Origin: a virus
Taxonomy: Duplodnaviria; Heunggongvirae; Uroviricota; Caudoviricetes
Virus record (IMG/VR): IMGVR_UViG_2778261454_000002
Coordinates: 1-19,434 of that record
DNA length: 19,434 bases
Reading direction: 5' to 3' (one strand)
Below the pieces are notes generated by a model, which saw only the letters and a list, made by a program, of their open reading frames with translations, did not search any database and had not been told where the DNA came from. Shown piece by piece: positions 1 through 19,434 of this stretch. Within the stretch, counting starts at the first letter, position 1. Each line of letters starts with the position of its first letter. A program made the translations under genes and the position numbers.

Positions 1-96
1 ATCAACCAAACCAGCGCAATGCCTGAAAAAACTGACGTTCACTGGAGTGGTCGGTTTAGCGTTGCACCAATGCTCGATAGGATGTACCGTTTTTGA
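1..96 (+). pseudogene. dusA: 5' fragment of host tRNA-dihydrouridine synthase A gene, truncated by the prophage junction (window starts inside the ORF)
   Basis: Frame 1 from nt 1 reads INQTSAMPEKTDVHWSGRFSVAPMLD, which matches my recollection of the E. coli DusA N-terminus (...RFSVAPMLDWTDRHCRYF...). After the D codon at 76-78 it diverges (RMYRF) and stops at 94-96. Recalled from memory, not searched. Confidence 0.6.
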
Positions 97-6509: not shown

Positions 6510-7196
6510 TTACCAAGTGCGCGATGACCAGAATACTCTACCTATAACGTGAATTCTTGAACGCCTATCTTCGAAGGTGAGTATTTCATCTGGATACTCA
6601 TCTTTATTGAAACTTCTTAGAATCAGACCACCGTCAGGTAAATTGATCAATATTTTAACTCTAAGTAATACGCCATCACGTATGGCATAAAGATCCCCAT
6701 CACGAATAGGAACCGTTTGGGAAACATCAACAGCAACAAAATCTCCATTGTTAAGTACAGGTAGTAAACTATTGCCCCAAATTTTTACGATCTTTGCATT
6801 GGAGACACATACACCAGCTTTTCTTAAATCAATCCTTCTTAGCGGGAACCAGTCTACAGTTGATTCAACTATTTCAGCCAAACATCCATTACCCGCTGAT
6901 AACTCGACATCTAGGACTGGAATGTTTGCAAAAATGTCAGGATCTAATGCTGTACTTTCAGCCTCCTTTACAACAAGGTCTGGGAAAGACGCGTTATCCT
7001 CAATGCCCAATTGCAACCACTTTTGAGAAACCCCTAACACTTTAGCAATCTCTTTAATTTTCCGAGGCTGTTGAGTTTCTCCATTCTCGATTTTCGCTAC
7101 GGATTGTTGTGAAAGCCCAATTTTTTCAGCTAGTTGCGCCTGACTCATTCCTGCTTTTTCTCTTTCGCTTTTTAGTCTTTCTGCCAATGTTTTCAC
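6510..7196 (-). CDS. cI: CI-type prophage repressor (N-terminal XRE HTH, C-terminal S24 LexA-like autopeptidase domain)
   Basis: 228 aa; HTH MSQAQLAEKIGLSQQSVAKIENG; C-terminal domain with Ser in IWGNSLLP and Lys in LLRVK. Divergent from cro; GTG start. Confidence 0.9.
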   Translation of the reverse strand: MKTLAERLKSEREKAGMSQAQLAEKIGLSQQSVAKIENGETQQPRKIKEIAKVLGVSQKWLQLGIEDNASFPDLVVKEAESTALDPDIFANIPVLDVELSAGNGCLAEIVESTVDWFPLRRIDLRKAGVCVSNAKIVKIWGNSLLPVLNNGDFVAVDVSQTVPIRDGDLYAIRDGVLLRVKILINLPDGGLILRSFNKDEYPDEILTFEDRRSRIHVIGRVFWSSRTW

Positions 7197-7199
7197 AAC

Positions 7200-7333
7200 A
7201 TATCCCCCTCGTTTTTATTGAGGTTACAACTTTATGTTTTAGCTTTCCAACATCTAAAAGTTGTGATAAAAGTTGTTGTAGTTGTATAATCGAAGTTATC
7301 AACAACTTTACTACTTACAGATAGGAGAAAGCT
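7200..7333. promoter_or_regulatory. OR-like operator cluster with PR (and presumably PRM)
   Basis: Repeated ACAACTTTA / TAAAAGTTGT and GTTGTTG / CAACAAC half-sites at about 7226-7238, 7254-7279 and 7299-7312. Plus-strand TATAAT at about 7285-7290 with TTGTGA about 18 nt upstream; AGGAGA RBS before cro ATG 7334. Confidence 0.6.
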
Positions 7334-7582
7334 ATGACACCTGAGCAATTAGCCTTATCAGAGGCAATCGCTCTGGCTGGTGGTCAATCAGAATTGGCTC
7401 GGAAGCTCACAGCCAGCAGTGGTCGTTTAGTAAAGCAACAACATGTCTGGAACTGGTTGAACAGAGAAAAGCGTCCCCCTGCAAAACTCTCGATATTTAT
7501 TGAAATGACCACTGGCGTATCAAAAGAAAAATTACGTCCAGATATTTTTCAAAAGATTAAAGACTTATCAGATGGAAAGTAA
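7334..7582 (+). CDS. cro: Cro-like HTH regulator (YdaS-like family)
   Basis: 82 aa; first gene rightward of OR, divergent from cI; HTH-like GGQSELARKL; YdaS-family resemblance is from memory. Confidence 0.7.
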   Translation: MTPEQLALSEAIALAGGQSELARKLTASSGRLVKQQHVWNWLNREKRPPAKLSIFIEMTTGVSKEKLRPDIFQKIKDLSDGK

Positions 7583-8156
7583 CCACAGTTTTAAGGAGAT
7601 AGCCGTGGGTAAGCATCACTGGAAAGTAGAAAAACAGCCTGAGTGGTACGTGAAAGCTGTCAGAAAAACTATCGCGGCGTTGCCGGGTGGTTACGCTGAA
7701 GCTGCTGACTGGCTGGATGTAACAGAGAACGCATTATTTAACCGCCTTCGTGCCGATGGCGATCAGATTTTCCCGCTGGGATGGGCAATGGTTTTGCAAC
7801 GTGCTGGTGGAACTCACTTCATTGCTGACGCTGTGGCGCAGTCTGCAAATGGCGTCTTTGTGTCTCTTCCTGACGTCGAGGATGTGGACAACGCCGATAT
7901 TAACAAGCGCCTGCTGGAAGTCATTGAACAGATTGGCAGTTATTCCAGACAGATTCGTTCGGCAATCGAAGACGGTGTGGTGGAACCGCATGAGAAGACA
8001 GCAATTAACGACGAGCTGTATCTCTCAATTTCGAAGCTGCAGGAGCATGCAGCACTGGTCTACAAAATCTTTTGCATTTCAGAAAGTAATGACGCCCGCG
8101 AGTGTGCAGCTCCGGGCGCCGTGGCGTGTCGTGACTGTGGAGAAACTAACGCATGA
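7572..8156 (+). CDS. CII/YdaT-like phage regulatory protein
   Basis: 194 aa directly after cro with an 11-nt overlap; position and size fit CII-type regulators (CP76/YdaT-like) of lambdoid prophages. Family assignment is from memory and uncertain. Confidence 0.55.
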
Positions 8157-8491
8157 ACAGTTTAACAACACACTACCGTCGCTCGCAACTGATTGCGCTT
8201 CCTGTACCGGGTGGAAAAGCGAAGGTGGAGTATTGCTATGCAGTTAATGTACCAGGTGACAGGGAAATTGTAACCCACAGCTTTGCTGAGTGGGCTGTGG
8301 GTGATTTCAACCGGCAGAAGGAGACAGTCCTTTGCGACAAGTTAACCGCTGGTTCAAAGATCACTACGGAGTGCCCGTCAGAGTCATTCGTTGGGAACCG
8401 GAAACACAACGGGTTATCTACCTCCGCGAAGGCTATGAGTATGAGTGCTTCAGCCCGCTCGAACAGTTTCGTCGTAAATTCAGGGAAATAG
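8153..8491 (+). CDS. Hypothetical protein; reading frame probably disrupted in its 3' half
   Basis: ATGA overlap with the upstream stop. N-terminal 60 aa look protein-like, but the C-terminal third is Ser-rich low complexity, while an overlapping Met-less frame (8305..8511) encodes a protein-like sequence. Confidence 0.4.
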
Positions 8492-8500
8492 AGGTCGGTC

Positions 8501-9136
8501 ATGAGCACTAAATTAACCGGCTATGTATGGGATGGTTGCGCAGCGTCAGGCATGAAATTATCCAGCGTGGCAATTATGGCCCGCCTGGCTGATTTCAGTA
8601 ATGACGAAGGTGTGTGCTGGCCATCAATTGAAACCATTGCCCGCCAGATTGGCGCGGGGATGAGTACCGTCAGAACGGCTATCGCACGGCTGGAAGCAGA
8701 AGGCTGGTTAACGCGTAAGGCGCGTCGCCAGGGTATCTGCATCATCGTCTGCCTGTCATGGGCTGTTAATCATTACCGTGATAACGCCATCGCCTATAAA
8801 GAACAGCGCGATAAAGCCACGTCTATCATCGCTGATATGCAGAAGCGTCAACGTGATGTAGCAGAACTTGACGCCAGATACACAAAGGAGCTTGCTGATG
8901 CTAATGCGACTATCGAAAGTCTCCGTGATGATGTTTCTGCTGGGCGTAAGCGCCTGCAAGTCGCCGCCACCTGTGCAAAGTCAACGACCGGAGCCAGCAG
9001 CATGGGCGATGGAGAAAGCCCAGGACTTACAGCAGATGCTGAACTCAATTATTACCGTCTCCGAAGTGGAATCGACAAGATAACCGCGCAGGTTAACTAC
9101 CTGCAGGAATACATCAGGACGCAATGCCTGAAATAA
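8501..9136 (+). CDS. Chimeric ORF: replication-initiator-like HTH N-terminal domain (about 78 aa) fused in frame to the C-terminal part of i-spanin Rz
   Basis: N-terminal [34 protein letters not shown] is an HTH typical of phage O-like initiators. From [19 protein letters not shown]... onward it is colinear with lambda Rz ([20 protein letters not shown]...[19 protein letters not shown]...LRDDVAAGRRRL...). Junction near nt 8735. Confidence 0.7.
8904..9083 (+). CDS. rz1: o-spanin Rz1 lipoprotein, embedded in the +1 frame of Rz
   Basis: Inside track ORF 8868..9083; [18 protein letters not shown] has a lipobox (LLGVSAC) followed by a Pro-rich segment ([16 protein letters not shown]), as in lambda Rz1. 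Start codon chosen by me. Confidence 0.7.
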
Positions 9137-9159: not shown

Positions 9160-9235
9160 ATTTAATGAGCCTCGCGATGCGGGGCTTTTTGCAATAAATG
9201 CGTACCGCAACGCATGTTTTTTACACCGAACCTGC
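9160..9235 (+). terminator. Two tandem hairpin/T-run elements downstream of Rz
   Basis: AGCCTCGC-GAT-GCGGGGCT followed by TTTTT, and ATGCG-TACCGCAA-CGCAT followed by GTTTTTT. Coordinates approximate. Confidence 0.4.
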
Positions 9236-9337: not shown

Positions 9338-9835
9338 ATGAAATCATTAACCCTCTTCAATCAACCAATTCGTATCGGTGAAGATGGCATGATCTGCCTC
9401 ACTGATATGTGGAAAGCCAGTGGTAAAAGTGAATCTGAATCGCCTTACCACTACCTGCGAAACAAGCAGACCAAAGAGTTCTTAGCCGAGCTGGAGAAAA
9501 ACCACGAATCTGTGGTTTTTACTGAGCGCGGTGTACACGGTGGAACATATGGCGGGAAGTTTGTTGCTTACGATTATGCGGCTTGGTTAAACCCCGGGTT
9601 CAAGTACGCGGCCTATAAAGTCCTCGATGACTACTTCACAGGAGAACTTCAGCATCGCAACAGCTTAAGTGCGCAGCTCAACATGAAATGTCATGAGTTT
9701 GACCAGAAGAAAGACATGGCGAGTTTCTGCGGACAAGGGCTGGCGGCATGGCGCTATACGAAGCCAGTGTTGGTCGCTGAGATTAACTCCCTGGCTAACC
9801 AGCTGCAGATTACGATCCCCGGGCTTCCGGGATGA
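9338..9835 (+). CDS. KilA-N domain protein
   Basis: 165 aa; N-terminal pattern (FNQPIRIGEDGMICLTDMWKASGK...) matches the KilA-N DNA-binding domain as recalled. Confidence 0.65.
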   Translation: MKSLTLFNQPIRIGEDGMICLTDMWKASGKSESESPYHYLRNKQTKEFLAELEKNHESVVFTERGVHGGTYGGKFVAYDYAAWLNPGFKYAAYKVLDDYFTGELQHRNSLSAQLNMKCHEFDQKKDMASFCGQGLAAWRYTKPVLVAEINSLANQLQITIPGLPG

Positions 9836-10089
9836 GTGATCGTGTCATTGAATGCGCCTCCAGAGCGGGGCGCGACTTCTCAGAGTTCATGAAAGGCGAG
9901 AAGGGCATGATGGAAGCATTGGCCTCGGTGGATGAGTTTGGCGAGCAGCTGCGCCTCAACGGCTGTGTCAATCATCACTTTGTTAGCTACATGATGCGGA
10001 ACTCGATCATGCAGGCATTCATGGACATGGCAAAAGCCGAGAGGAAAGAAGAGCGCCGGCGTAAGCGAGCGGAAGCAAAAGCGAAGTAG
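9832..10089 (+). CDS. Hypothetical protein (85 aa, basic C-terminus)
   Basis: ATGA overlap with the KilA-N stop; C-terminal KAERKEERRRKRAEAKAK; followed by a hairpin (AAGCCCA...TGGGCTT). Confidence 0.5.
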   Translation: MSDRVIECASRAGRDFSEFMKGEKGMMEALASVDEFGEQLRLNGCVNHHFVSYMMRNSIMQAFMDMAKAERKEERRRKRAEAKAK

Positions 10090-10183: not shown

Positions 10184-10342
10184 ATGACTTTAGCTGAACG
10201 TGTAAAGAGAATTGAGAGCGAATTAAAAGACATTAAATCGCAACTCAATTCTGGTACCGATTCTAGGAAAACAGCAAAAGCAATGCCCTTATCCAGTCTT
10301 GCAAAAGAGGGAGGTATCCCTGGGGGGTTAGTTAAAAAATGT
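10184..10342 (+). CDS. Small hypothetical protein (52 aa)
   Basis: Not in the track; AAGAGG RBS 6 nt upstream of ATG; predicted MTLAERVKRIESELKDIKSQLNSGTDSRKTAKAMPLSSLAKEGGIPGGLVKKC; its 3' end overlaps the convergent protease gene. Confidence 0.3.
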
Positions 10343-10792
10343 TAACTCAAATACTTGATTGGAAAAATCCATCGTAAGGGCGCCCATTTTAATTAGTTGC
10401 ATTCCGAAAACGACTTGGAATTTTCTCCCGTTACTTACCAATGGCACTGAAGTCAATTCTGTTGAAAAAACTCTTTCGTCCTCAGTGAACGATATTACCG
10501 CATGCCGAACTGTAGTTTCTATTGTTGAGGTGGCTCCGCTCACAGTTGTTTTTTCCGCGATTGGGAGTTTTAAATCGTCAGCAAAGTCTGAATCCACATA
10601 GCAAAGATCTGCTCCGGTATCTATAAGTGCGTAGGCACCAGCCTTCAATCCATTTGGTTTATAAACGTTTATATCTTTTGAGCTACTTGGCCATACTGTC
10701 AATGGAACTACGGGAATTGCATGCTCCGTGGGGGTATCTGATACCGATCCATCAATAGGGGAAATAAACTTGATTTTTACTTTGGTGATCAT
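10328..10792 (-). CDS. Retropepsin-like (clan AA) aspartic protease
   Basis: 154 aa; catalytic-type motif ALIDTGADLCYVD (D-T-G-A) and C-terminal GMQLIKMGALTMDF resembling the retropepsin dimerisation strand; AAGGA RBS. AT-rich, opposite orientation to its neighbours, with its own upstream intergenic region. Confidence 0.65.
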   Translation of the reverse strand: MITKVKIKFISPIDGSVSDTPTEHAIPVVPLTVWPSSSKDINVYKPNGLKAGAYALIDTGADLCYVDSDFADDLKLPIAEKTTVSGATSTIETTVRHAVISFTEDERVFSTELTSVPLVSNGRKFQVVFGMQLIKMGALTMDFSNQVFELTFFN

Positions 10793-11051
10793 CCTTTTTC
10801 CTTCGAAGAGTTATTCAGCCATTCCTCCTCTTTGCGTGAATCAGTGTCCCACCACTGACGGGCTGAATGCTTACCTTACCCGGGGTTAAAACGAAGTAAT
10901 ACCCTGATATTCAGACAGTAACCGCATCGCGCGGCATTTATGCGCATCGCACGCGCACATCAAAGAAAGTCTTTCAGCTGTGAGCCTGGGCAAACCGTTA
11001 ACTTTCGGCGGCTTTGCCGTGCGACAGGCTCACGCCTAAAAGGAAATACCC

Positions 11052-11216
11052 ATGAAATATTTATCGCTACAACAGGCGATGCTCGGCATGCGAGTAATCA
11101 TGACCGATGATGGCCTCATTTTGAAAAGCCCGGCAGGTAGTGCGCATTACGATCTGAAAGGTCGACGCCATACAGTTTGGGGGATGCTTCTTTCTTCCCG
11201 GAGCATATGCGTGTGA
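11052..11216 (+). CDS. Small hypothetical protein (54 aa)
   Basis: Not in the track; ATG about 8 nt after AAGGA; overlaps the next ORF in a different frame. Confidence 0.3.
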   Translation: MKYLSLQQAMLGMRVIMTDDGLILKSPAGSAHYDLKGRRHTVWGMLLSSRSICV

Positions 11217-11725
11217 AGGATAAGCGTAAGCCTAATCTCAGCCGTATTGTTTTTGAGAAAGACTGCACGACTATTTATGGTGCTGATGGAAAACCACAAG
11301 CACGCATAGGTAACTGGGATAAACCGGGAGAACCAAAAGGCTGGCGAATCCAAAAAGACGGCGCGTATATAACGTCTTATGAATTCAATCCTAAGAATAA
11401 TTTTAATGAGAACGGCCAGCAGTATGCAGCTGGAATGGTCGTTGGTATTGATGTGCAAAAGGGCAATGCAGCTGTTAATGCCAATCAATTTAAGTCTCCG
11501 ATAGAAGCACCAGATCCAATAACCGAGAGCATTTTAGAAAATGCACTTTCAACCCATGCTGCTAATAAAAACATCCAGGCCCTCATCAACCAGCAAGCAA
11601 AGGAGATCGTGGAAATGAAACAGGGCTTTGCCGAGTCTGTAAAAAAGGAGCTGGCTAAGCATCTTCGCCATGGTGGATTGATGTGGTCTGCATTAGTCAA
11701 GCGAAGTAGACGTTTAGACGTCTAA
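11207..11725 (+). CDS. Hypothetical protein (172 aa from ATG; track ORF begins at TTG 11177)
   Basis: Long ORF with no family recognised; the last gene before cos, where lambda carries bor and accessory ORFs. Confidence 0.5.
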   Translation: MRVKDKRKPNLSRIVFEKDCTTIYGADGKPQARIGNWDKPGEPKGWRIQKDGAYITSYEFNPKNNFNENGQQYAAGMVVGIDVQKGNAAVNANQFKSPIEAPDPITESILENALSTHAANKNIQALINQQAKEIVEMKQGFAESVKKELAKHLRHGGLMWSALVKRSRRLDV

Positions 11726-11789
11726 ATAACAACAGGCACTCAAACACAATTGATAACCATTATCGTTTGGGTCCTTTCCGGCAATCCGC

Positions 11790-11815
11790 CCTGTTACGGG
11801 GCGGCGTCCGCGCAG
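11790..11815. other. cos site: cosN nicking region with predicted 12-nt cohesive end GGGCGGCGTCCG (about 11799-11810), cosB downstream
   Basis: GTTACGGGGCGGCGTCCGCGCAGATTCTCGCTATATATGAAAATTTT is nearly identical to lambda cosN (GTTACGGGGCGGCGACCTCGCGGGTTTTCGCTATTTATGAAAATTTT), about 80 nt upstream of Nu1. Confidence 0.7.
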
Positions 11816-11886
11816 ATTCTCGCTATATATGAAAATTTTGGACATGAGGTTGTTGTTTAATCATTGCTGAAAACGGGTGAGGGAAT

Positions 11887-12393
11887 ATGGCCGTGCTATT
11901 GAATAAATCTGATATGGCTTCCTCGCTGGGAATATCCGTCCAGGCCTTTGATAAATGGGGTGTCCAGCCAGTAGAAAAGAGAGGGCGAGAAGTCTTCTTT
12001 GACGTTCGTTCAGTCGTTGATAACCGCATCGAACACCAGAGTCGAAAACTACAACCATCGCCGGGAGAAGACGATGATAGTGTCAATATTGATTATGAAC
12101 GTTGGCGTTTAACTCGTGCTAATGCGGATGCGGCTGAGCTGGCCAATGAGAAAAAGCGTCGCGAGGTCGTAGAGACTGCGTTTTGTACCTTCGTGTTATC
12201 CAGAATTGCCGCTGAAATATCCAGTATTCTGGATGGCATACCCCTTTCGATGCAGCGCCGGTTCCCTGAGCTGGAAAATCGGCATATCGAGTTCCTGAAA
12301 GGGGACGTAATAAAGGCAATGAATAAGGCTGCGGCGCTGGATGAACGGATTCCGGGGTTGTTGAATGATTATATCGACCAGTCAGGTAGCTAA
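11887..12393 (+). CDS. Nu1: Terminase small subunit Nu1
   Basis: 168 aa; C-terminal two-thirds almost identical to lambda Nu1 (VVETAFCTFVLSRIA.EI.SILDG.PLS.QRRFPELENRH..FLK...IKAMNKAAALDE.IPGLL); GAGGGA RBS. Confidence 0.9.
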   Translation: MAVLLNKSDMASSLGISVQAFDKWGVQPVEKRGREVFFDVRSVVDNRIEHQSRKLQPSPGEDDDSVNIDYERWRLTRANADAAELANEKKRREVVETAFCTFVLSRIAAEISSILDGIPLSMQRRFPELENRHIEFLKGDVIKAMNKAAALDERIPGLLNDYIDQSGS

Positions 12394-14287
12394 TCTGCGA
12401 ACAGCGGTAAAAGCTGGTCTGAAATCACTATACCGCCCGGAACCCATGACAGCTGTCGAATGGGCCGATGCGCATTATTACCTTCCGAAGGAATCCGCTT
12501 ATCAGGAAGGGCGCTGGGAAACATTGCCATTTCAGCGCGCGATCATGAATGCGATGGGCAGCGACTATATTCGCATTGTTAACGTAATTAAGTCGGCGCG
12601 AGTAGGCTATTCGAAAATGCTACTCGGCGTCATTGCTTATTTCATCGAGCACAAACAACGTAATGAGTTGCTGTGGCTGCCGACCGACGGCGACGCAGAT
12701 AATTTCATGAAGTCACACGTTGAACCTACGATCCGTGATGTTCCCTCGCTGTTATCACTTGCTCCCTGGTATGGGAAAAAGCACAGGGATAACACGCTGT
12801 CGATGAAGCGATTTACCAATGGCCGTGGCTTCTGGTGCCTGGGTGGTAAATCGGCTAAGAACTATCGTGAAAAATCAGTCGATGTCGTTGGATACGATGA
12901 GCTGGCTGCGTTTGACGCTGATATTGAGAAAGAGGGTTCGCCGACCTTCCTGGGGGATAAGCGTATCGAGGGTTCTGTTTGGCCCAAATCCATACGCGGT
13001 TCGACACCGAAATTGCGTGGAACGTGTCAGATTGAGCGGGCAGCAAAAGAGTCCGGACATTTTATGCGATTTCATGTCGCATGTCCGCACTGTGGTGAAG
13101 AGCAGTATCTTAAATTTGGTGACCGGGATACGCCTTTCGGCTTCAAATGGGAGCCTGAGCAGGCCGAAACGGTCTACTACCTCTGCGAGCATAATGCTTG
13201 TGTCATTAAGCAACATGAACTGGACTTTTCCAACGCTCGTTATATCTGCGAATTGACCGGAATATGGACGCGCGACGGGCTTCGCTGGTTCTCATCGTCT
13301 AATGCTGAAATTGATCCACCTGAAAGCGTAACTTTCCACATCTGGACAGCTTATAGCCCGTTTACCACTTGGGTACAGATAGTTAAAGACTGGTTCAAAA
13401 CGAAAGGCGACACGGGTAAACGCAAGACATTTGTGAACACCACCCTGGGCGAAACGTGGGAAGCGAAAATCGGTGATCGCCCCGATGCAGACGTTTTAGC
13501 AGAGCGTAAAGAGCACTTTGATGCTGCAGTACCTGAGCGAGTGGCGTATCTGACAGCGGGGATTGACTCCCAGCTCGACCGTTACGAAATGCGTGTGTGG
13601 GGATGGGGGCCGGGTGAGGAAAGCTGGCTTATCGACAGGCAAATCATCATGGGTCGCCATGATGATGAGTCAACGCTTGCCCGTGTGGATGAGGCGATTA
13701 ACAAGACATATAAACGCCGGAACGGCGTAGAAATGTTTATATCCCGTATCTGCTGGGATATCGGTGGTATTGACCCCACTATCGTTTACAACCGCTCGAA
13801 AAAACACGGTCTGTTTCGTGTGATCCCGATAAAGGGTGCGTCGGTTTATGGAAAGCCGGTGGCGAACATGCCCCGCAAACGCAACAAAAACGGTGTTTAT
13901 CTGACAGAAGTGGGTACTGATACCGCGAAAGAGCAGATTTATAACCGCTTCACGCTGACCGTTGAAGGTGATGAGCCTCTGGCCGGTGCCGTTCACTTCC
14001 CCAATAACCCCGATATTTATGATCTTTCAGAGGCGCAGCAGCTGACCGCCGAAGAACTGGTCGAAAAGTGGGTTGATGGTAAGAGAAAAATCATATGGGA
14101 CAGCAAAAAAAGGCGAAATGAGGCTCTCGACTGCTTTGTTTACGCACTGGCGGCGCTTCGTATCAGCATATCCCGCTGGCAGCTTAACCTTGATTCACTT
14201 CTTGCCAGCCTGCTGGAGGAAGAAGGCACCCGTAACAATAACAAGACCCTGGCGGATTACGCGCGGGCATTGTCTGGAGAGGAATAA
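12365..14287 (+). CDS. A: Terminase large subunit A
   Basis: 640 aa versus 641 in lambda; high identity along the full length (for example [40 protein letters not shown]); overlaps Nu1 as in lambda. Confidence 0.95.
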
Positions 14288-14493
14288 TGGCAACACAGAC
14301 TGAACTGGATGCCGCGCGCGCTGCGTTACATGACCTGATGATGGGGAAACGAGTGGCGACGGTACAGAAAGATGGCCGAAGAGTGGAATTTACAGCTACC
14401 TCAGTTACCGATCTCAAAAAGTATATTGCTGACCTTGAATCTCAGGTTGGTACCACATCACGACGCCAGGGGCCTGCAAGGTTTTACGTATGA
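14287..14493 (+). CDS. W: Head-tail joining protein W
   Basis: 68 aa, near-identical to lambda gpW ([41 protein letters not shown]). Confidence 0.9.
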
Positions 14494-16082
14494 AAATACC
14501 ATCTTTAGTGGGTCCTGACGGGAAAACATCCCTTCGGGAATACGCGGGGTATCATGGCGGCGGCGGAGGGTTTGGTGGTCAGTTGCGGGGCTGGAATCCA
14601 CCAAGCGAAAGTGCTGATGCGGCTCTTCTGCCTAACTTCTCGCGCGGAAATGCCCGTGCTGACGATCTGGTCAGAAATAATGGCTATGCGGCAAACGCCG
14701 TGCAGCTCCACCAGGACCACATCGTCGGGTCATTTTTCAGACTCAGCTATCGACCGAGCTGGCGCTATCTTGGCATCAATGAGGAGGATTCACGCGCATT
14801 TTCGCGGGATGTAGAAGCCGCCTGGAACGAGTATGCCGAGGATGATTTTTGCGGGATTGATGCTGAGCGCAAGCGAACCTTTACGATGATGATCCGTGAA
14901 GGTGTGGCCATGCATGCGTTTAACGGTGAATTATGCATGCAGGCGACCTGGGACAGCGATTCAACGCGTCTTTTCCGTACTCAGTTCAAAATGGTCAGTC
15001 CGAAGCGCGTCAGTAATCCAAACAATATCGGTGATACCCGGAACTGTCGCGCTGGGGTAAAAATCAATAACAGTGGTGCTGCGCTGGGATATTACGTCAG
15101 CGACGACGGATACCCCGGCTGGATGTCACAGAACTGGACCTATATTCCGCGCGAGCTTCCTGGTGGCCGCCCCTCGTTTATCCATGTATTCGAACCGATG
15201 GAGGATGGACAGACCCGTGGGGCTAATGCGTTTTACAGCGTGATGGAGCAGATGAAAATGCTCGATACCCTGCAAAACACCCAGCTCCAGAGCGCTATCG
15301 TAAAGGCCATGTATGCAGCCACCATCGAGAGTGAACTGGATACCCAATCGGCGATGGATTTTATCCTCGGTGCGGATAATAAAGAGCAGCAGAGCAAACT
15401 GACAGGCTGGCTCGGCGAAATGGCAGCCTATTACTCCGCTGCGCCGGTTCGCCTGGGCGGGGCAAGGGTCCCACACCTGTTGCCGGGGGATTCTCTTAAC
15501 CTTCAGTCGGCGCAGGATACCGATAACGGCTATTCAACGTTCGAACAATCCCTGCTGCGTTATATTGCTGCAGGGCTGGGTGTGTCGTATGAGCAGCTTT
15601 CACGAAACTATTCGCAGATGAGCTACTCGACCGCACGCGCAAGTGCTAACGAGTCCTGGGTGTACTTTATGGGGCGTCGCAAGTTTGTTGCGTCCCGACA
15701 GGCCTGCCAGATGTTTCTTTGCTGGCTGGAAGAAGCGATTGCCAGAAGGGTGGTCACGCTTCCTTCGAAAGCCCGTTTCAGTTTCCAGGAGGCTCGAACA
15801 GCATGGGGGAACGCCAGCTGGATTGGCTCTGGCCGAATGGCTATTGACGGGCTGAAAGAGGTGCAGGAAGCCGTCATGCTTATTGAGGCTGGTCTCAGCA
15901 CGTATGAGAAAGAGTGCGCCAAACGCGGTGATGATTATCAGGAGATTTTTGCCCAGCAGGTCCGGGAAACAATGGAGCGTCGTGCTGCGGGTCTGAAACC
16001 ACCGGCATGGGCCGCTGCCGCTTTTGAGGCTGGACTGAAAAAATCAAACGAGGAGGAGCAAGATGGCGCACGAGCTGCGTAA
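14490..16082 (+). CDS. B: Portal protein B
   Basis: 530 aa versus 533 in lambda; very high identity ([54 protein letters not shown]). Confidence 0.95.
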
Positions 16083-17406
16083 TCTTCCGCATATCGCCAG
16101 TATGGCCTTTAATGAGCCGCTGATGCTTGAACCCGCCTACGCGCGGGTTTTCTTTTGTGCCTTAGCTGGTCAGCTGGGCATCACCCGGCTGACAGATACC
16201 GTCTCTGGCATCACGCTTGACGCCGGACAAATAGCCGAACCGCTGGCGCTGTTTGGTGAAGATGATGACATGGATACCCGACCATCGCGAAGCTATCAGG
16301 TGGCAAATGGCATCGCGGTCTTGCCGGTTTCCGGCACTCTGGTGAGTAAAACCCGTGCGCTGCAGCCTTATTCCGGGATGACGGGTTACAACGGGATCAT
16401 CGCTCGCCTGCAGCAGGCCATCAGTGACCCCGGCGTCGACGGCATTCTACTGGACATGGATACGCCGGGTGGCATGGTGTCCGGGGCGTTTGACTGCGCC
16501 GACATTATTGCCCGTATGCGCGATATCAAACCCATCTGGGCGCTGGCCAATGACATGAACTGCAGTGCAGGTCAGCTTATAGCCAGTTCGGCATCGCGAC
16601 GGCTGGTCACACAAACGGCCAGAACCGGCTCCATTGGGGTCATGATGGCGCACAGTAACTATGGCGCTGCGCTCAAAACTAACGGCGTTGAGGTCACGCT
16701 GATTTACAGCGGCGATCGCAAGGTCGACGGCAACCCTTACGAAAAGCTTCCGAAAGATGTGCGTGCTGATTTCCAGACGCGTATCGATGCCACTCGTCAG
16801 ATGTTTGCCGAAAAGGTTTCCGCTTATACCGGCATGTCTGTTCAGGACGTGCTGGACACCGAAGCGGCAGTATTCTCCGGCCAGGAATCTTTGGATAACG
16901 GGCTGGCGGATGAACTTGTTAACAATACCGATGCGCTCGGCGTGATGCGCGAAGCACTCGACAGACGCAAAAAAACAACCCTTGGAGGAACTATGCCATC
17001 ACCTTCTGCATCAGCTGTGACCACTAAGCCAGTTGACCAGGCAGCAACTCAGACAACTGCATCAGCTGAACAGGCCACTACCGTTGACACGACAATTGCT
17101 TCCGTAGCAGCCCCTGTAGATGTCAGTGCGCAGGTTACTGCAGCAGTAGCTGCAGAGAATAGTCGCATCATGGGCATCCTAAACTGCGACGAGGCTAAAG
17201 GGCGTGAGTCACAGGCGCGAGCACTGGCCGAAACGCCGGGTATGACGGTAGAGAGCGCACAGCGCATTCTGGCTGCTGCACCGCAAAGTGCCCAGACGCG
17301 TACCGATACGGCGCTGGATCGTTTGATGGAAACAGCACCCGGTGCACTCCCAGCAGGTAGCGCATCTTCTGATGCCGCTGACGATTTGTTAAACACCCCC
17401 GTTTAA
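16063..17406 (+). CDS. C: Head maturation protease C (S49/ClpP-like), presumably with in-frame internal scaffold Nu3
   Basis: 447 aa; colinear with lambda C ([37 protein letters not shown]...). The Ala/Thr/Ser-rich linker and conserved C-terminus match the lambda C/Nu3 arrangement. Confidence 0.9.
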   Translation: MAHELRNLPHIASMAFNEPLMLEPAYARVFFCALAGQLGITRLTDTVSGITLDAGQIAEPLALFGEDDDMDTRPSRSYQVANGIAVLPVSGTLVSKTRALQPYSGMTGYNGIIARLQQAISDPGVDGILLDMDTPGGMVSGAFDCADIIARMRDIKPIWALANDMNCSAGQLIASSASRRLVTQTARTGSIGVMMAHSNYGAALKTNGVEVTLIYSGDRKVDGNPYEKLPKDVRADFQTRIDATRQMFAEKVSAYTGMSVQDVLDTEAAVFSGQESLDNGLADELVNNTDALGVMREALDRRKKTTLGGTMPSPSASAVTTKPVDQAATQTTASAEQATTVDTTIASVAAPVDVSAQVTAAVAAENSRIMGILNCDEAKGRESQARALAETPGMTVESAQRILAAAPQSAQTRTDTALDRLMETAPGALPAGSASSDAADDLLNTPV

Positions 17407-17415
17407 GAGGCTATC

Positions 17416-17748
17416 ATGGCAATTACTGAAGTTTTCACACATAACCAGCCGCTCGGTAACAGCGACCCGGCGCACACTGCGTATGGTCCTGGCGAACTGA
17501 CAGCTTCCACTCCAGCCATGACGCCGCTCATGCTGGATGCCACTTCTGGCAAGCTGGCCGTCTGGGATGGTGCTCATGCTGGCGCGGCAATGGGCATCCT
17601 GGCTGTAACCGCAGACCAGAACAGCGCGGAACTGGCATTTTACAAATCTGGCTCTTTCCGTATTGAAGATGTCCTCTGGCCATCTGCCGTCACCGACGAC
17701 AACATTAAACGTAACGCGTTCGCCGGTACTGCAATCAGCATCGTTTAA
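17416..17748 (+). CDS. D: Head decoration protein D
   Basis: 110 aa, same length as lambda gpD, high identity ([27 protein letters not shown]....KL..WDG...GAA.GILAV.ADQ). Confidence 0.9.
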
Positions 17749-17777
17749 TCCGCATTTCTACAACCATCATCATTCAT

Positions 17778-17803
17778 AAAAGCCGCCTGCGCGGCTTTTT
17801 TTA
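17778..17803 (+). terminator. Hairpin with T-run between D and E (possible attenuator or mRNA stabiliser)
   Basis: AGCCGC-CTGC-GCGGCT followed by TTTTTTT, 13 nt before the E start codon. Confidence 0.4.
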
Positions 17804-17815
17804 CGGGAAATATCT

Positions 17816-18841
17816 ATGTCCGTTTACACCACTGCCCAGCTGCTGGCGGTCAATGAGAAGAAATTCAAATTCGATCCGCTTTTCCTGCGTATCTTTTTCC
17901 GCGAAACCTATCCCTTCAGTACAGAGAAGGTTTACCTGTCGCAAATTCCTGGCCTGGTCAATATGGCGCTTTACGTCTCGCCGATTGTCTCCGGCAAAGT
18001 GATCCGCTCCCGTGGCGGCAGCACGTCTGAATTCACGCCAGGTTATGTGAAGCCGAAACACGAAGTTAACCCACTGATGACTCTCCGCCGCCTGCCGGAT
18101 GAGGATCCGCAGAATCTCGCTGACCCGGTCTATCGCCGTCGCCGCATCATCCTTCAGAACATGAAGGATGAAGAGCTGGCGATTGCTCAGGTCGAAGAGA
18201 AACAGGCTGTTTCGGCGGTGCTCAGCGGTAAATACACCATGACCGGGGAAGCGTTCGAGCCTGTTGAAGTCGATATGGGTCGCAGCGCTGGTAACAACAT
18301 TGTCCAGGCAGGTGCGGCTGCATGGTCAACCCGCGACAAAGAAACGTATGACCCGACCGATGACATTGAAGCGTACGCGCTTAATGCCAGCGGTGTGATC
18401 AACATCATTGTGTTCGATCCGAAGGGCTGGGCGCTGTTCCGTTCCTTCAAGTCTGTTGAGAAGAAACTGGACACCCGTCGGGGTTCTAACTCAGAGCTGG
18501 AAACTGCCGTGAAAGACCTGGGTATGGCTGTTTCATACAAGGGTATGTATGGCGATGTGGCCATCGTGGTGTACTCCGGCCAGTACGTCGAAAATGATGT
18601 CAAAAAGAACTATCTGCCGGATCTGACGATGGTTCTGGGTAATACACAGGCCCGTGGCCTCCGTACCTATGGCTGCATTCTTGATGCTGATGCCCAGCGC
18701 GAAGGTATCAATGCCTCGACACGCTACCCGAAAAACTGGGTGCAGTCGGGGGATCCGGCGCGCGAATTCACCATGATTCAGTCAGCTCCGCTGATGCTGC
18801 TGCCAGACCCTGACGCATTCGTCTCCGTCAAACTGGCATAA
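17816..18841 (+). CDS. E: Major capsid protein E
   Basis: 341 aa, same length as lambda gpE, and near-identical (YTTAQLLA.NE.KFKFDPLFLR.FFRE.YPF.TEKVYLSQIPGLVNMALYVSPIVSG.VIRSRGGSTSEFTPGYVKPKHEVNP). Confidence 0.95.
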   Translation: MSVYTTAQLLAVNEKKFKFDPLFLRIFFRETYPFSTEKVYLSQIPGLVNMALYVSPIVSGKVIRSRGGSTSEFTPGYVKPKHEVNPLMTLRRLPDEDPQNLADPVYRRRRIILQNMKDEELAIAQVEEKQAVSAVLSGKYTMTGEAFEPVEVDMGRSAGNNIVQAGAAAWSTRDKETYDPTDDIEAYALNASGVINIIVFDPKGWALFRSFKSVEKKLDTRRGSNSELETAVKDLGMAVSYKGMYGDVAIVVYSGQYVENDVKKNYLPDLTMVLGNTQARGLRTYGCILDADAQREGINASTRYPKNWVQSGDPAREFTMIQSAPLMLLPDPDAFVSVKLA

Positions 18842-18886
18842 CTTCCCCCAGTGGCCCTGTCGGGCCACCTTTCTGGAGTATTTCCC

Positions 18887-19294
18887 ATGACAGAAAAAGA
18901 AAAGCTGGTCGCCCGCCTGAATGAACTTGGGACCCAGCTTAACCGCGAGGTCAGTTCCAGCGGCACCATTCAGGAACTAACGATGCGTATTGCTGAGCTT
19001 GAAGAGGAGCTGGATGGAGACGCCATCTCGGTTGACGGTAAAAACGGCGTGCAGAATGCTTCCGACAGCACCGACAGCACCGACAGCAATGTTGCTAACG
19101 TGGCAAAAGTAAAAACGGAATCGGCCACAACGGGTGACCTGGTATCAGTAGAAACGCTGGCCACCCTGCATATTGACGCTCTGCATGCCACGCGTAACGA
19201 ACCGGTATCCATCGTAGAGCCTGGTGTGATTATCCGCGTATCTGAACAGGATGCCGACGACTTGATCGCAAAGGGGCTGGCTTTCGAAGTCTGA
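18887..19294 (+). CDS. FI: DNA packaging protein FI
   Basis: Track ORF 18851..19294; start trimmed to MTEKEKLVARLNELGTQLNREV, which aligns with lambda FI MTKDELIARLRSLGEQLNRDV; conserved C-terminal HIDALHATRNEPV. Confidence 0.8.
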   Translation: MTEKEKLVARLNELGTQLNREVSSSGTIQELTMRIAELEEELDGDAISVDGKNGVQNASDSTDSTDSNVANVAKVKTESATTGDLVSVETLATLHIDALHATRNEPVSIVEPGVIIRVSEQDADDLIAKGLAFEV

Positions 19295-19304
19295 AGGGGG
19301 CCAC

Positions 19305-19434
19305 ATGGCTGATTTCGATAATCTCTTTGACGAGGCCATGTCGCGAGCTGATAGCGCTATCCGGCCTCAAAGTGTGAAGTGGTCGTTTTCATGGAGAAAG
19401 CATAATGGCCGAATTTGGCGCGATGATATTAATG
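19305..19434 (+). CDS. FII: Head completion protein FII (5' partial, runs off window)
   Basis: MADFDNLFDEAMSRADSAIR matches the lambda FII N-terminus MADFDNLFDAAIARADETIR; the sequence after about residue 21 diverges. Confidence 0.65.
   Translation, partial: MADFDNLFDEAMSRADSAIRPQSVKWSFSWRKHNGRIWRDDIN

Follow-up and report, generated by a model that had tools for sequence, protein, structure and literature searches.

The stretch analysed here, called the window throughout (19,434 nucleotides, record IMGVR_UViG_2778261454_000002), is the complete draft contig NODD01000048.1 of the short-read Escherichia coli assembly GCA_002518125.1, and it carries most of a lambda-related (lambdoid) prophage with the packaging and head genes Nu1, A, W, B, C, D, E and FI. 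An initial annotation had described these genes as an apparently intact lambda head module in a prophage that lacks late-gene activation and lysis functions, and had proposed either that the deletion is recent or that the head genes are maintained by selection or by recombination with other lambdoid phages. We consider it very likely that the element is an ordinary crippled lambdoid prophage of E. coli, integrated at dusA, whose head block is intact because two recent deletions, both private to this contig, missed it. The evidence that carries this conclusion is the integrity of the genes, the two junctions, their absence elsewhere, and the identity of the head block to copies in intact relatives, each of which was observed.

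The head block between two deletion junctions

The block cos-Nu1-A-W-B-C/Nu3-D-E-FI (11799-19294, about 7.5 kb) is intact and consists of the following features:

11799-11810, plus strand: cosN, the 12-nt cohesive end GGGCGGCGTCCG, identical to bases 1-12 of N15
11887-12393, plus strand: Nu1, terminase small subunit, 168 aa, N15 type (Pfam PF07471, Phage_Nu1)
12365-14287, plus strand: A, terminase large subunit, 640 aa (PF05876 and PF20454, GpA_ATPase and GpA_nuclease)
14287-14493, plus strand: W, head-tail adaptor, 68 aa (PF02831, gpW)
14490-16082, plus strand: B, portal protein, 530 aa (PF05136, Phage_portal_2)
16063-17406, plus strand: C, S49 prohead protease, 447 aa (PF01343, Peptidase_S49)
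16993, plus strand: nested in-frame start of a Nu3-like scaffold within C, an ATG preceded by GGAGG
17416-17748, plus strand: D, head decoration protein, 110 aa (PF02924, HDPD)
17816-18841, plus strand: E, major capsid protein, 341 aa (PF03864, Phage_cap_E)
18887-19294, plus strand: FI, packaging chaperone, 135 aa (PF14000, Packaging_FI)

From Nu1 to FI the gene order is of the lambda type, all eight Pfam matches span nearly the full profile, no internal stop occurs, and the genes overlap by 29, 1, 4 and 20 nt, matching lambda and N15. The coordinates of the block are those of N15 genes 1-8 plus 11,798, and a single ungapped alignment with N15 runs from cosN into FI (7,290 nt, 93.5% nucleotide identity), with only 2 mismatches in the 88 nt, cosN included, that precede the start of Nu1. 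The A protein is found in identical form on 4 other contigs and the FI protein on 17 contigs. The description of these eight genes as full length with lambda-like overlaps is thus borne out by the near-complete Pfam matches, the absence of internal stops and the colinearity with N15. Judged by sequence similarity, however, the accurate label for the block is N15/phi80-type, because lambda reaches only some 77% identity, and this over just a part of it. An N15-like linear plasmid prophage was considered as the source of the contig and rejected, since the left arm is the early region of a dusA-integrated lambdoid prophage.

Upstream of cos, the first of the two junctions lies within a reading frame composed of two unrelated genes:

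8501-9136, plus strand: chimeric in-frame open reading frame (ORF), the scar of deletion 1, in which codons 1-78 of an HTH_36 replication protein are fused to Rz from codon 13 through the stop
8731-8735, unstranded: junction of deletion 1; the left arm ends at 8735 and the right arm starts at 8731 in two related prophages, L028 and L032
8868-9083, plus strand: Rz1, o-spanin lipoprotein, embedded in the Rz remnant in another frame (Pfam Rz1, 71.7 bits)

Here and below, L-numbers (L001-L046) are the labels of related contigs and stretches compared with the window. In the chimeric product, Pfam identifies HTH_36, the N-terminal domain of a replication initiator, at aa 23-70 and Phage_lysis (Rz) at aa 100-209, and tblastn places aa 1-78 of the replication protein at 8501-8734 with 100% identity and aa 13-144 of Rz at 8735-9130 with 97% identity. 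Only 78 of the 313 initiator codons are left. The junction is clean in a three-way alignment, with a microhomology of at most 5 bp. The parent-like prophages L028, L032 and L033 share their CI, cro, YmfL and DUF4222 genes with the window and carry 7.5-7.7 kb between the two junction points, which sets the size of the deletion at about 7.5 kb against L028 and about 7.7 kb against L032. In these relatives the intervening DNA carries the remainder of the initiator gene together with genes for PerC, Dam, a LexA-like protein, RusA, KilA-N and DUF968, as well as for the Q antiterminator, a methylase or porin moron, holin and endolysin. When parent-like Q, holin, endolysin, PerC, Dam, RusA, DUF968 and methylase proteins were used as tblastn queries, including both Q types, three holins and three lysozymes from the relatives, no match was obtained in the window, and no antiterminator Pfam family occurs among its called genes.

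One illegitimate deletion accounts for the upstream loss, and replication was lost with it. This deletion, mediated by the microhomology, extends over about 7.5 kb from initiator codon 78 to Rz codon 13 and takes in the rest of the replication gene, the nin-type region, Q with the late promoter, holin and endolysin. The earlier statement that Q and the lysis genes are deleted is therefore correct for Q, holin and endolysin, of which the tblastn searches found no copy elsewhere in the window either, but not for the whole lysis cassette, as Rz from codon 13 to its end and Rz1 survive at 8735-9136. The product of the chimeric ORF (P0001, with an internal start) is listed in nr as an E. coli protein and labelled 'lysis system i-spanin subunit Rz'; this label is misleading, as the ORF is a deletion chimera that lacks the first 12 codons of Rz, part of its N-terminal region.

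The second junction closes the head block on the right:

19305-19363, plus strand: FII', the first 20 codons only of the head-completion gene, from comparison with intact FII
19358-19363, unstranded: junction of deletion 2, with the 6-bp microhomology TATCCG, from a three-way alignment
19364-19434, plus strand: post-J sequence, comprising the last part of a 100-aa ORF that follows J and the first part of the ORF after it

Of FII, 20 of 117 codons are present, after which the frame diverges from that of intact FII, and all relatives cease to match at 19363. The last 71 nt of the window match the region after J in strain YPE10 and in phi80 lysogens, and in YPE10 they lie 11.5 kb further on. Compared with YPE10, about 11.5 kb are missing, comprising the rest of FII, Z, U, V, G, T, H, M, L, K, I, J and most of the 100-aa ORF, and no tail protein gave a tblastn match in the window. 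This second deletion, again mediated by microhomology, extends from FII codon 20 to just past J, with the loss of every tail gene. The initial annotation had seen no decay between 11887 and 19434 and had suggested looking for intact tail genes beyond the window. The window itself contradicts both points: FII is cut after codon 20, at position 19363, a truncated head gene of the very kind said to speak against an intact module, and its stub is joined to post-J DNA, with everything from FII to the post-J region lost.

Age of the deletions and competing explanations

Both junctions are private to this contig. Megablast against 5,426 complete E. coli genomes returned no match spanning junction 1 or junction 2, neither junction string occurs exactly in the species-representative genomes of GTDB or in the JGI metagenomes, and an exact-protein look-up found the chimeric protein of 8501-9136 on this contig only. 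The head genes, by contrast with the junctions, are found unchanged elsewhere. L011 is 100% identical to the window over 10371-14578, L019 over 16110-19363, and L016 over 13924-19363, beyond which its FII and the tail genes Z, U, V, G, T, H, M, L, K, I and J follow in intact form. In L009, at 99.55% identity, the tail genes are intact as well. The private junctions and the existence of 100% identical head copies in other elements favour the proposal that the deletion is recent. Thus, the head genes are most readily seen as intact because the deletions are recent and have left no time for point mutations, so that neither selection nor repair is necessary to explain them; zero substitutions relative to intact copies also mean that there has been no time for selection or repair to act. 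The head block would then lie between two scars as a segment spared by both events and too young to have gathered point mutations of its own.

The ends of the contig bear on whether the junctions are real:

1-77, plus strand: left contig end, an exact 77-mer of dusA, representing the attachment-site duplication and the repeat that ends the contig

Thousands of E. coli genomes match positions 1-77 at 100% identity in the 5' part of dusA, and a partial dusA coding sequence lies at the same place in L001 as in the window; the repeat at this end corresponds to the duplicated attachment site of a prophage integrated at dusA. Positions 19358-19434, made up of the 6-bp microhomology and the last 71 nt, are likewise an exact 77-mer, 100% identical to a stretch just past the tail gene J in other lambdoid prophages. 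Exact 77-mer repeats at both ends are the signature of a k=77 de Bruijn assembly halted at repeats, and the right end halts with the first 77-mer composed entirely of post-J sequence, as is expected if another post-J copy is present in the genome. The repeat at the right end implies such a second copy, probably in another lambdoid prophage, which could be a helper or a recombination partner.

If one or both junctions were chimeric joins or the product of a mixed population, the real prophage could be intact. The contig is indeed a short-read draft, junction 2 lies only 71 nt from its end, and lambdoid repeats are notorious for misassembly. However, microhomologies of at most 5 bp and of 6 bp are far below any usable k and too short for a misjoin at k=77, and both ends of the contig are exact 77-mers. 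Had FII or the replication gene also been present in intact form behind identical upstream sequence, the k=77 graph would have branched and the contig would have stopped at 19363 or 8735, but it crosses both positions. Junction 1 is also situated in the middle of the contig, and the same contig is listed under two samples in the collection. We therefore regard an assembly artefact as extremely unlikely. Maintenance by recombination, in which gene conversion with lambdoid prophages or infecting phages would keep the head genes intact as a reservoir of shared modules, is suggested by the mosaic structure of the block and by the probable presence of another lambdoid prophage in the genome. N15-like elements (L008, L010, L011) match Nu1-A-W and the 5' part of B at 99-100% identity, and C-D-E-FI are 99.9-100% identical to chromosomal prophages (L012, L014, L016) with a different Nu1, which in L012 and L014 is the lambda-type protein of 181 aa. 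The same mosaic exists, however, in relatives that still bear tails, namely L009 (from Nu1 to D) and L016 (from A to FI), so that the exchanges predate the deletions, and with zero changes since the deletions there is nothing to repair. Hence, we give recombination as the cause of the intact head genes very little probability.

Selection could also be thought to keep the head and packaging block, either as an emerging capsid-only satellite, which would use its own cos and terminase to package its DNA into its own heads and borrow FII, tails and lysis from a co-resident lambdoid phage, or by way of proteins that serve the host or other prophages. In its favour, cos, terminase and all prohead genes are intact amid the surrounding deletions, the right contig end implies a second post-J copy and with it another lambdoid prophage in the genome, and deletions of the rep::Rz type recur independently. 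Moreover, lambda heads and tails assemble separately and then join, and the capsid-forming phage-inducible chromosomal islands (PICIs) work in that way. Against it, both junctions are private to one contig, no substitution has occurred since divergence from intact phage copies that could form a signature of maintenance, the loss of the replication genes, of Q and of the late promoter leaves no evident means of DNA amplification or of switching on the genes, FII is truncated, and the chimeric ORF and the out-of-frame FII' stub resemble accidents. The window contains neither an integrase nor a primase, its replication gene is truncated, and it does not show the compact architecture conserved across strains that marks a capsid-forming PICI, as neither junction recurs in the JGI metagenomes, in the species representatives of GTDB or in any of the 5,426 E. 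coli genomes. We judge that selection of either kind is very improbable. The narrower idea of a satellite in the making, which has lost host-killing and borrowable functions and kept immunity, cos, terminase and the full prohead set, seems to us a very long shot. If it were true, the remnant could package itself with tails, FII and lysis provided by a lambdoid phage resident in the same cell, and recurrent rep::Rz fusions, such as that of P0002 on L046, would be a favoured one-step 'disarming' deletion instead of the outcome of chance.

The ratio of non-synonymous to synonymous substitution rates (dN/dS), put forward in the initial annotation as a check, was calculated for the head genes and is 0.039 against N15 (388.5 synonymous and 59.5 non-synonymous differences); against L009 there are 14 synonymous and 2 non-synonymous changes. 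As a test of current selection this ratio was discarded as uninformative, since the closest relatives are 100% identical and every difference predates the deletions. The low value reflects the past of the module in a working phage and is silent on the period after the deletions. Maintenance by selection or by lambdoid recombination is left unsupported in view of the private junctions, the zero substitutions and a mosaic older than the deletions.

One other in-frame rep::Rz chimera was observed among 5.8 billion proteins (P0002; L046 881-1477, Logan ERR13858572). It is independent and comes from another sample, and its junction differs, joining codon 61 of rep to codon 8 of Rz with the microhomology TATC. 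Fusions of NinX to Rz and of R (endolysin) to Rz also occur (P0005, P0012). Deletions that end within the first 15 or so Rz codons appear to have arisen repeatedly in E. coli prophages, as seen in a search biased towards in-frame products with a near-full-length Rz.

Several points weigh against the reading that two recent and accidental deletions simply missed the head block. With zero divergence from its relatives, dN/dS is without power to exclude selection acting now. The junctions are known at the level of the assembled contig, and the second one lies only 71 nt from its end. The independent and very similar rep::Rz fusion may mean that such a deletion is favoured and not purely random. 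A helper prophage may also supply Q, lysis and tails, or displaced copies of these genes may lie elsewhere in the genome. These points do not alter our preference for two recent private deletions in an ordinary prophage, and we view the window as ordinary prophage decay, an already known kind of thing, caught early.

The early region and the present state of the element

To the left of the head block, the window retains part of the early region and a group of genes between Rz and cos:

6510-7196, minus strand: intact CI-type repressor, 228 aa, with a helix-turn-helix and an S24 self-cleaving peptidase domain (Pfam); phrog_4
7261-7290, plus strand: putative pR-like sigma-70 promoter, TTGTGA-18-TATAAT, a consensus match only, preceding the cro-like gene
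7334-8511, plus strand: remnant of the early right operon, with a cro-like gene (7334-7582), a CII-like/YmfL gene (7605-8156) and DUF4222 (8332-8511)
9114-9131 and 9198-9215, plus strand: two terminator-like hairpins directly after Rz, by pattern match only
9338-10089, plus strand: genes for a KilA-N protein of 165 aa and a protein of 85 aa, as is usual just 3' of Rz in many lambdoid prophages
10328-10792, minus strand: moron encoding a retropepsin-like aspartyl protease, 154 aa, which overlaps a convergent 53-aa ORF (10184-10345, plus strand)

A 228-aa repressor with the same Pfam domains occupies the same position in L032-L036, beside an identical YmfL-like protein. With Q and the late promoter gone and terminator-like hairpins after Rz, the head genes would be transcriptionally orphaned. 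The only evident promoter that faces them is the CI-controlled, pR-like site at 7261-7290, from which at most read-through would be expected, and head-gene expression, if any, would be confined to such read-through after cleavage of the intact S24-type repressor in the SOS response. Any heads made in this way would be without FII and tails, and the cell would not be lysed. Measured against what a functional lambdoid prophage contains, the window lacks a complete replication initiator, Q with the late promoter, holin and endolysin, and the tail genes from Z to J. We infer that the element is unable to replicate, to lyse the cell or to make infectious particles, and plausibly the host retains the immunity benefit of an intact repressor while the lethal functions have been lost.

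The import of these results beyond annotation is small. What the window provides is a clean and datable snapshot of the first steps of prophage decay, consisting of two microhomology deletions, no point mutations as yet and an intact repressor. The draft contig should not be scored as an intact prophage, and an intact structural module in a draft contig is uninformative on selection unless its junctions are shared across lineages.

The spacing from Rz to KilA-N is 201 nt, the same as in L022-L031. The moron protease matches Asp_protease_2 with 26.7 bits (cutoff 24.3) and has a DTGA motif, and it has no match in PHROGs or PADLOC. Together with its convergent partner it forms a pair that lies antisense between the lysis and head regions and that is seen in many different prophage contexts; the identical protease is found in more than 1,000 blocks of the collection, at varied lambdoid positions that include the interval between the tail genes M and L. 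Among the genes from Rz to cos, PADLOC returned no defence annotation except a weak match of the KilA-N protein (PDC-S22). Two small ORFs of 54 aa and 170 aa lie at 11052-11725, just upstream of cos, and the 170-aa product has a weak stretch resembling Phage_Tail_Tip; the N15-like relatives L008 and L010 encode a longer protein of 232-269 aa at this pre-cos position.

Comparison with known systems

The head block resembles genes 1-9 of N15 (Ravinvirus N15) and the head modules of phi80 and HK225, with which it shares the same lambda-family Pfam set, and its cosN is identical to that of N15. It differs from N15 in its setting, a chromosomal lambdoid prophage integrated at dusA, whereas N15 is a linear plasmid prophage, and it also has a shorter FI allele (135 aa versus 144 aa) and a deletion of the region from FII through J. 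With the Nu1-FI region of lambda it has in common the gene order, the overlaps, the protein families and the nested protease and scaffold, but the nucleotide identity of about 77% extends only from the 3' part of Nu1 into C, and the N-terminal DNA-binding half of Nu1 belongs to the N15 type (the whole protein has 168 aa, that of lambda 181 aa).

Intact dusA prophages of E. coli, such as those of strain 97.3 (NZ_CP061758) and CP081742, have the same insertion site and a lambda-type head module, and share with the window the early-left genes and the arrangement CI/cro/YmfL/DUF4222/HTH_36 at 96-98% identity. Between the replication gene and Rz they retain 7.5-10 kb of DNA, with Q, holin and lysozyme among its genes, which the window is without. 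In strain 97.3, FII and the tail genes are likewise present up to the limit of the fetched sequence, which reaches into the tape-measure gene, and these too are missing from the window.

The defective prophages of K-12, DLP12, Rac, Qin and e14, have large internal deletions that leave islands of intact genes, as is the case here; they are old, fixed in their lineage and retain few structural genes, whereas the prophage in the window looks fresh and its head block is complete. Capsid-forming PICIs, which are satellites that steal tails, carry their own packaging and capsid genes and have no tail or lysis genes, and to this extent the window is similar to them. They are, however, compact and conserved, bring an integrase and regulatory and replication functions of their own, and have a head set of the HK97 type, while the missing tail and lysis genes of the window are private deletion scars in a normal prophage.

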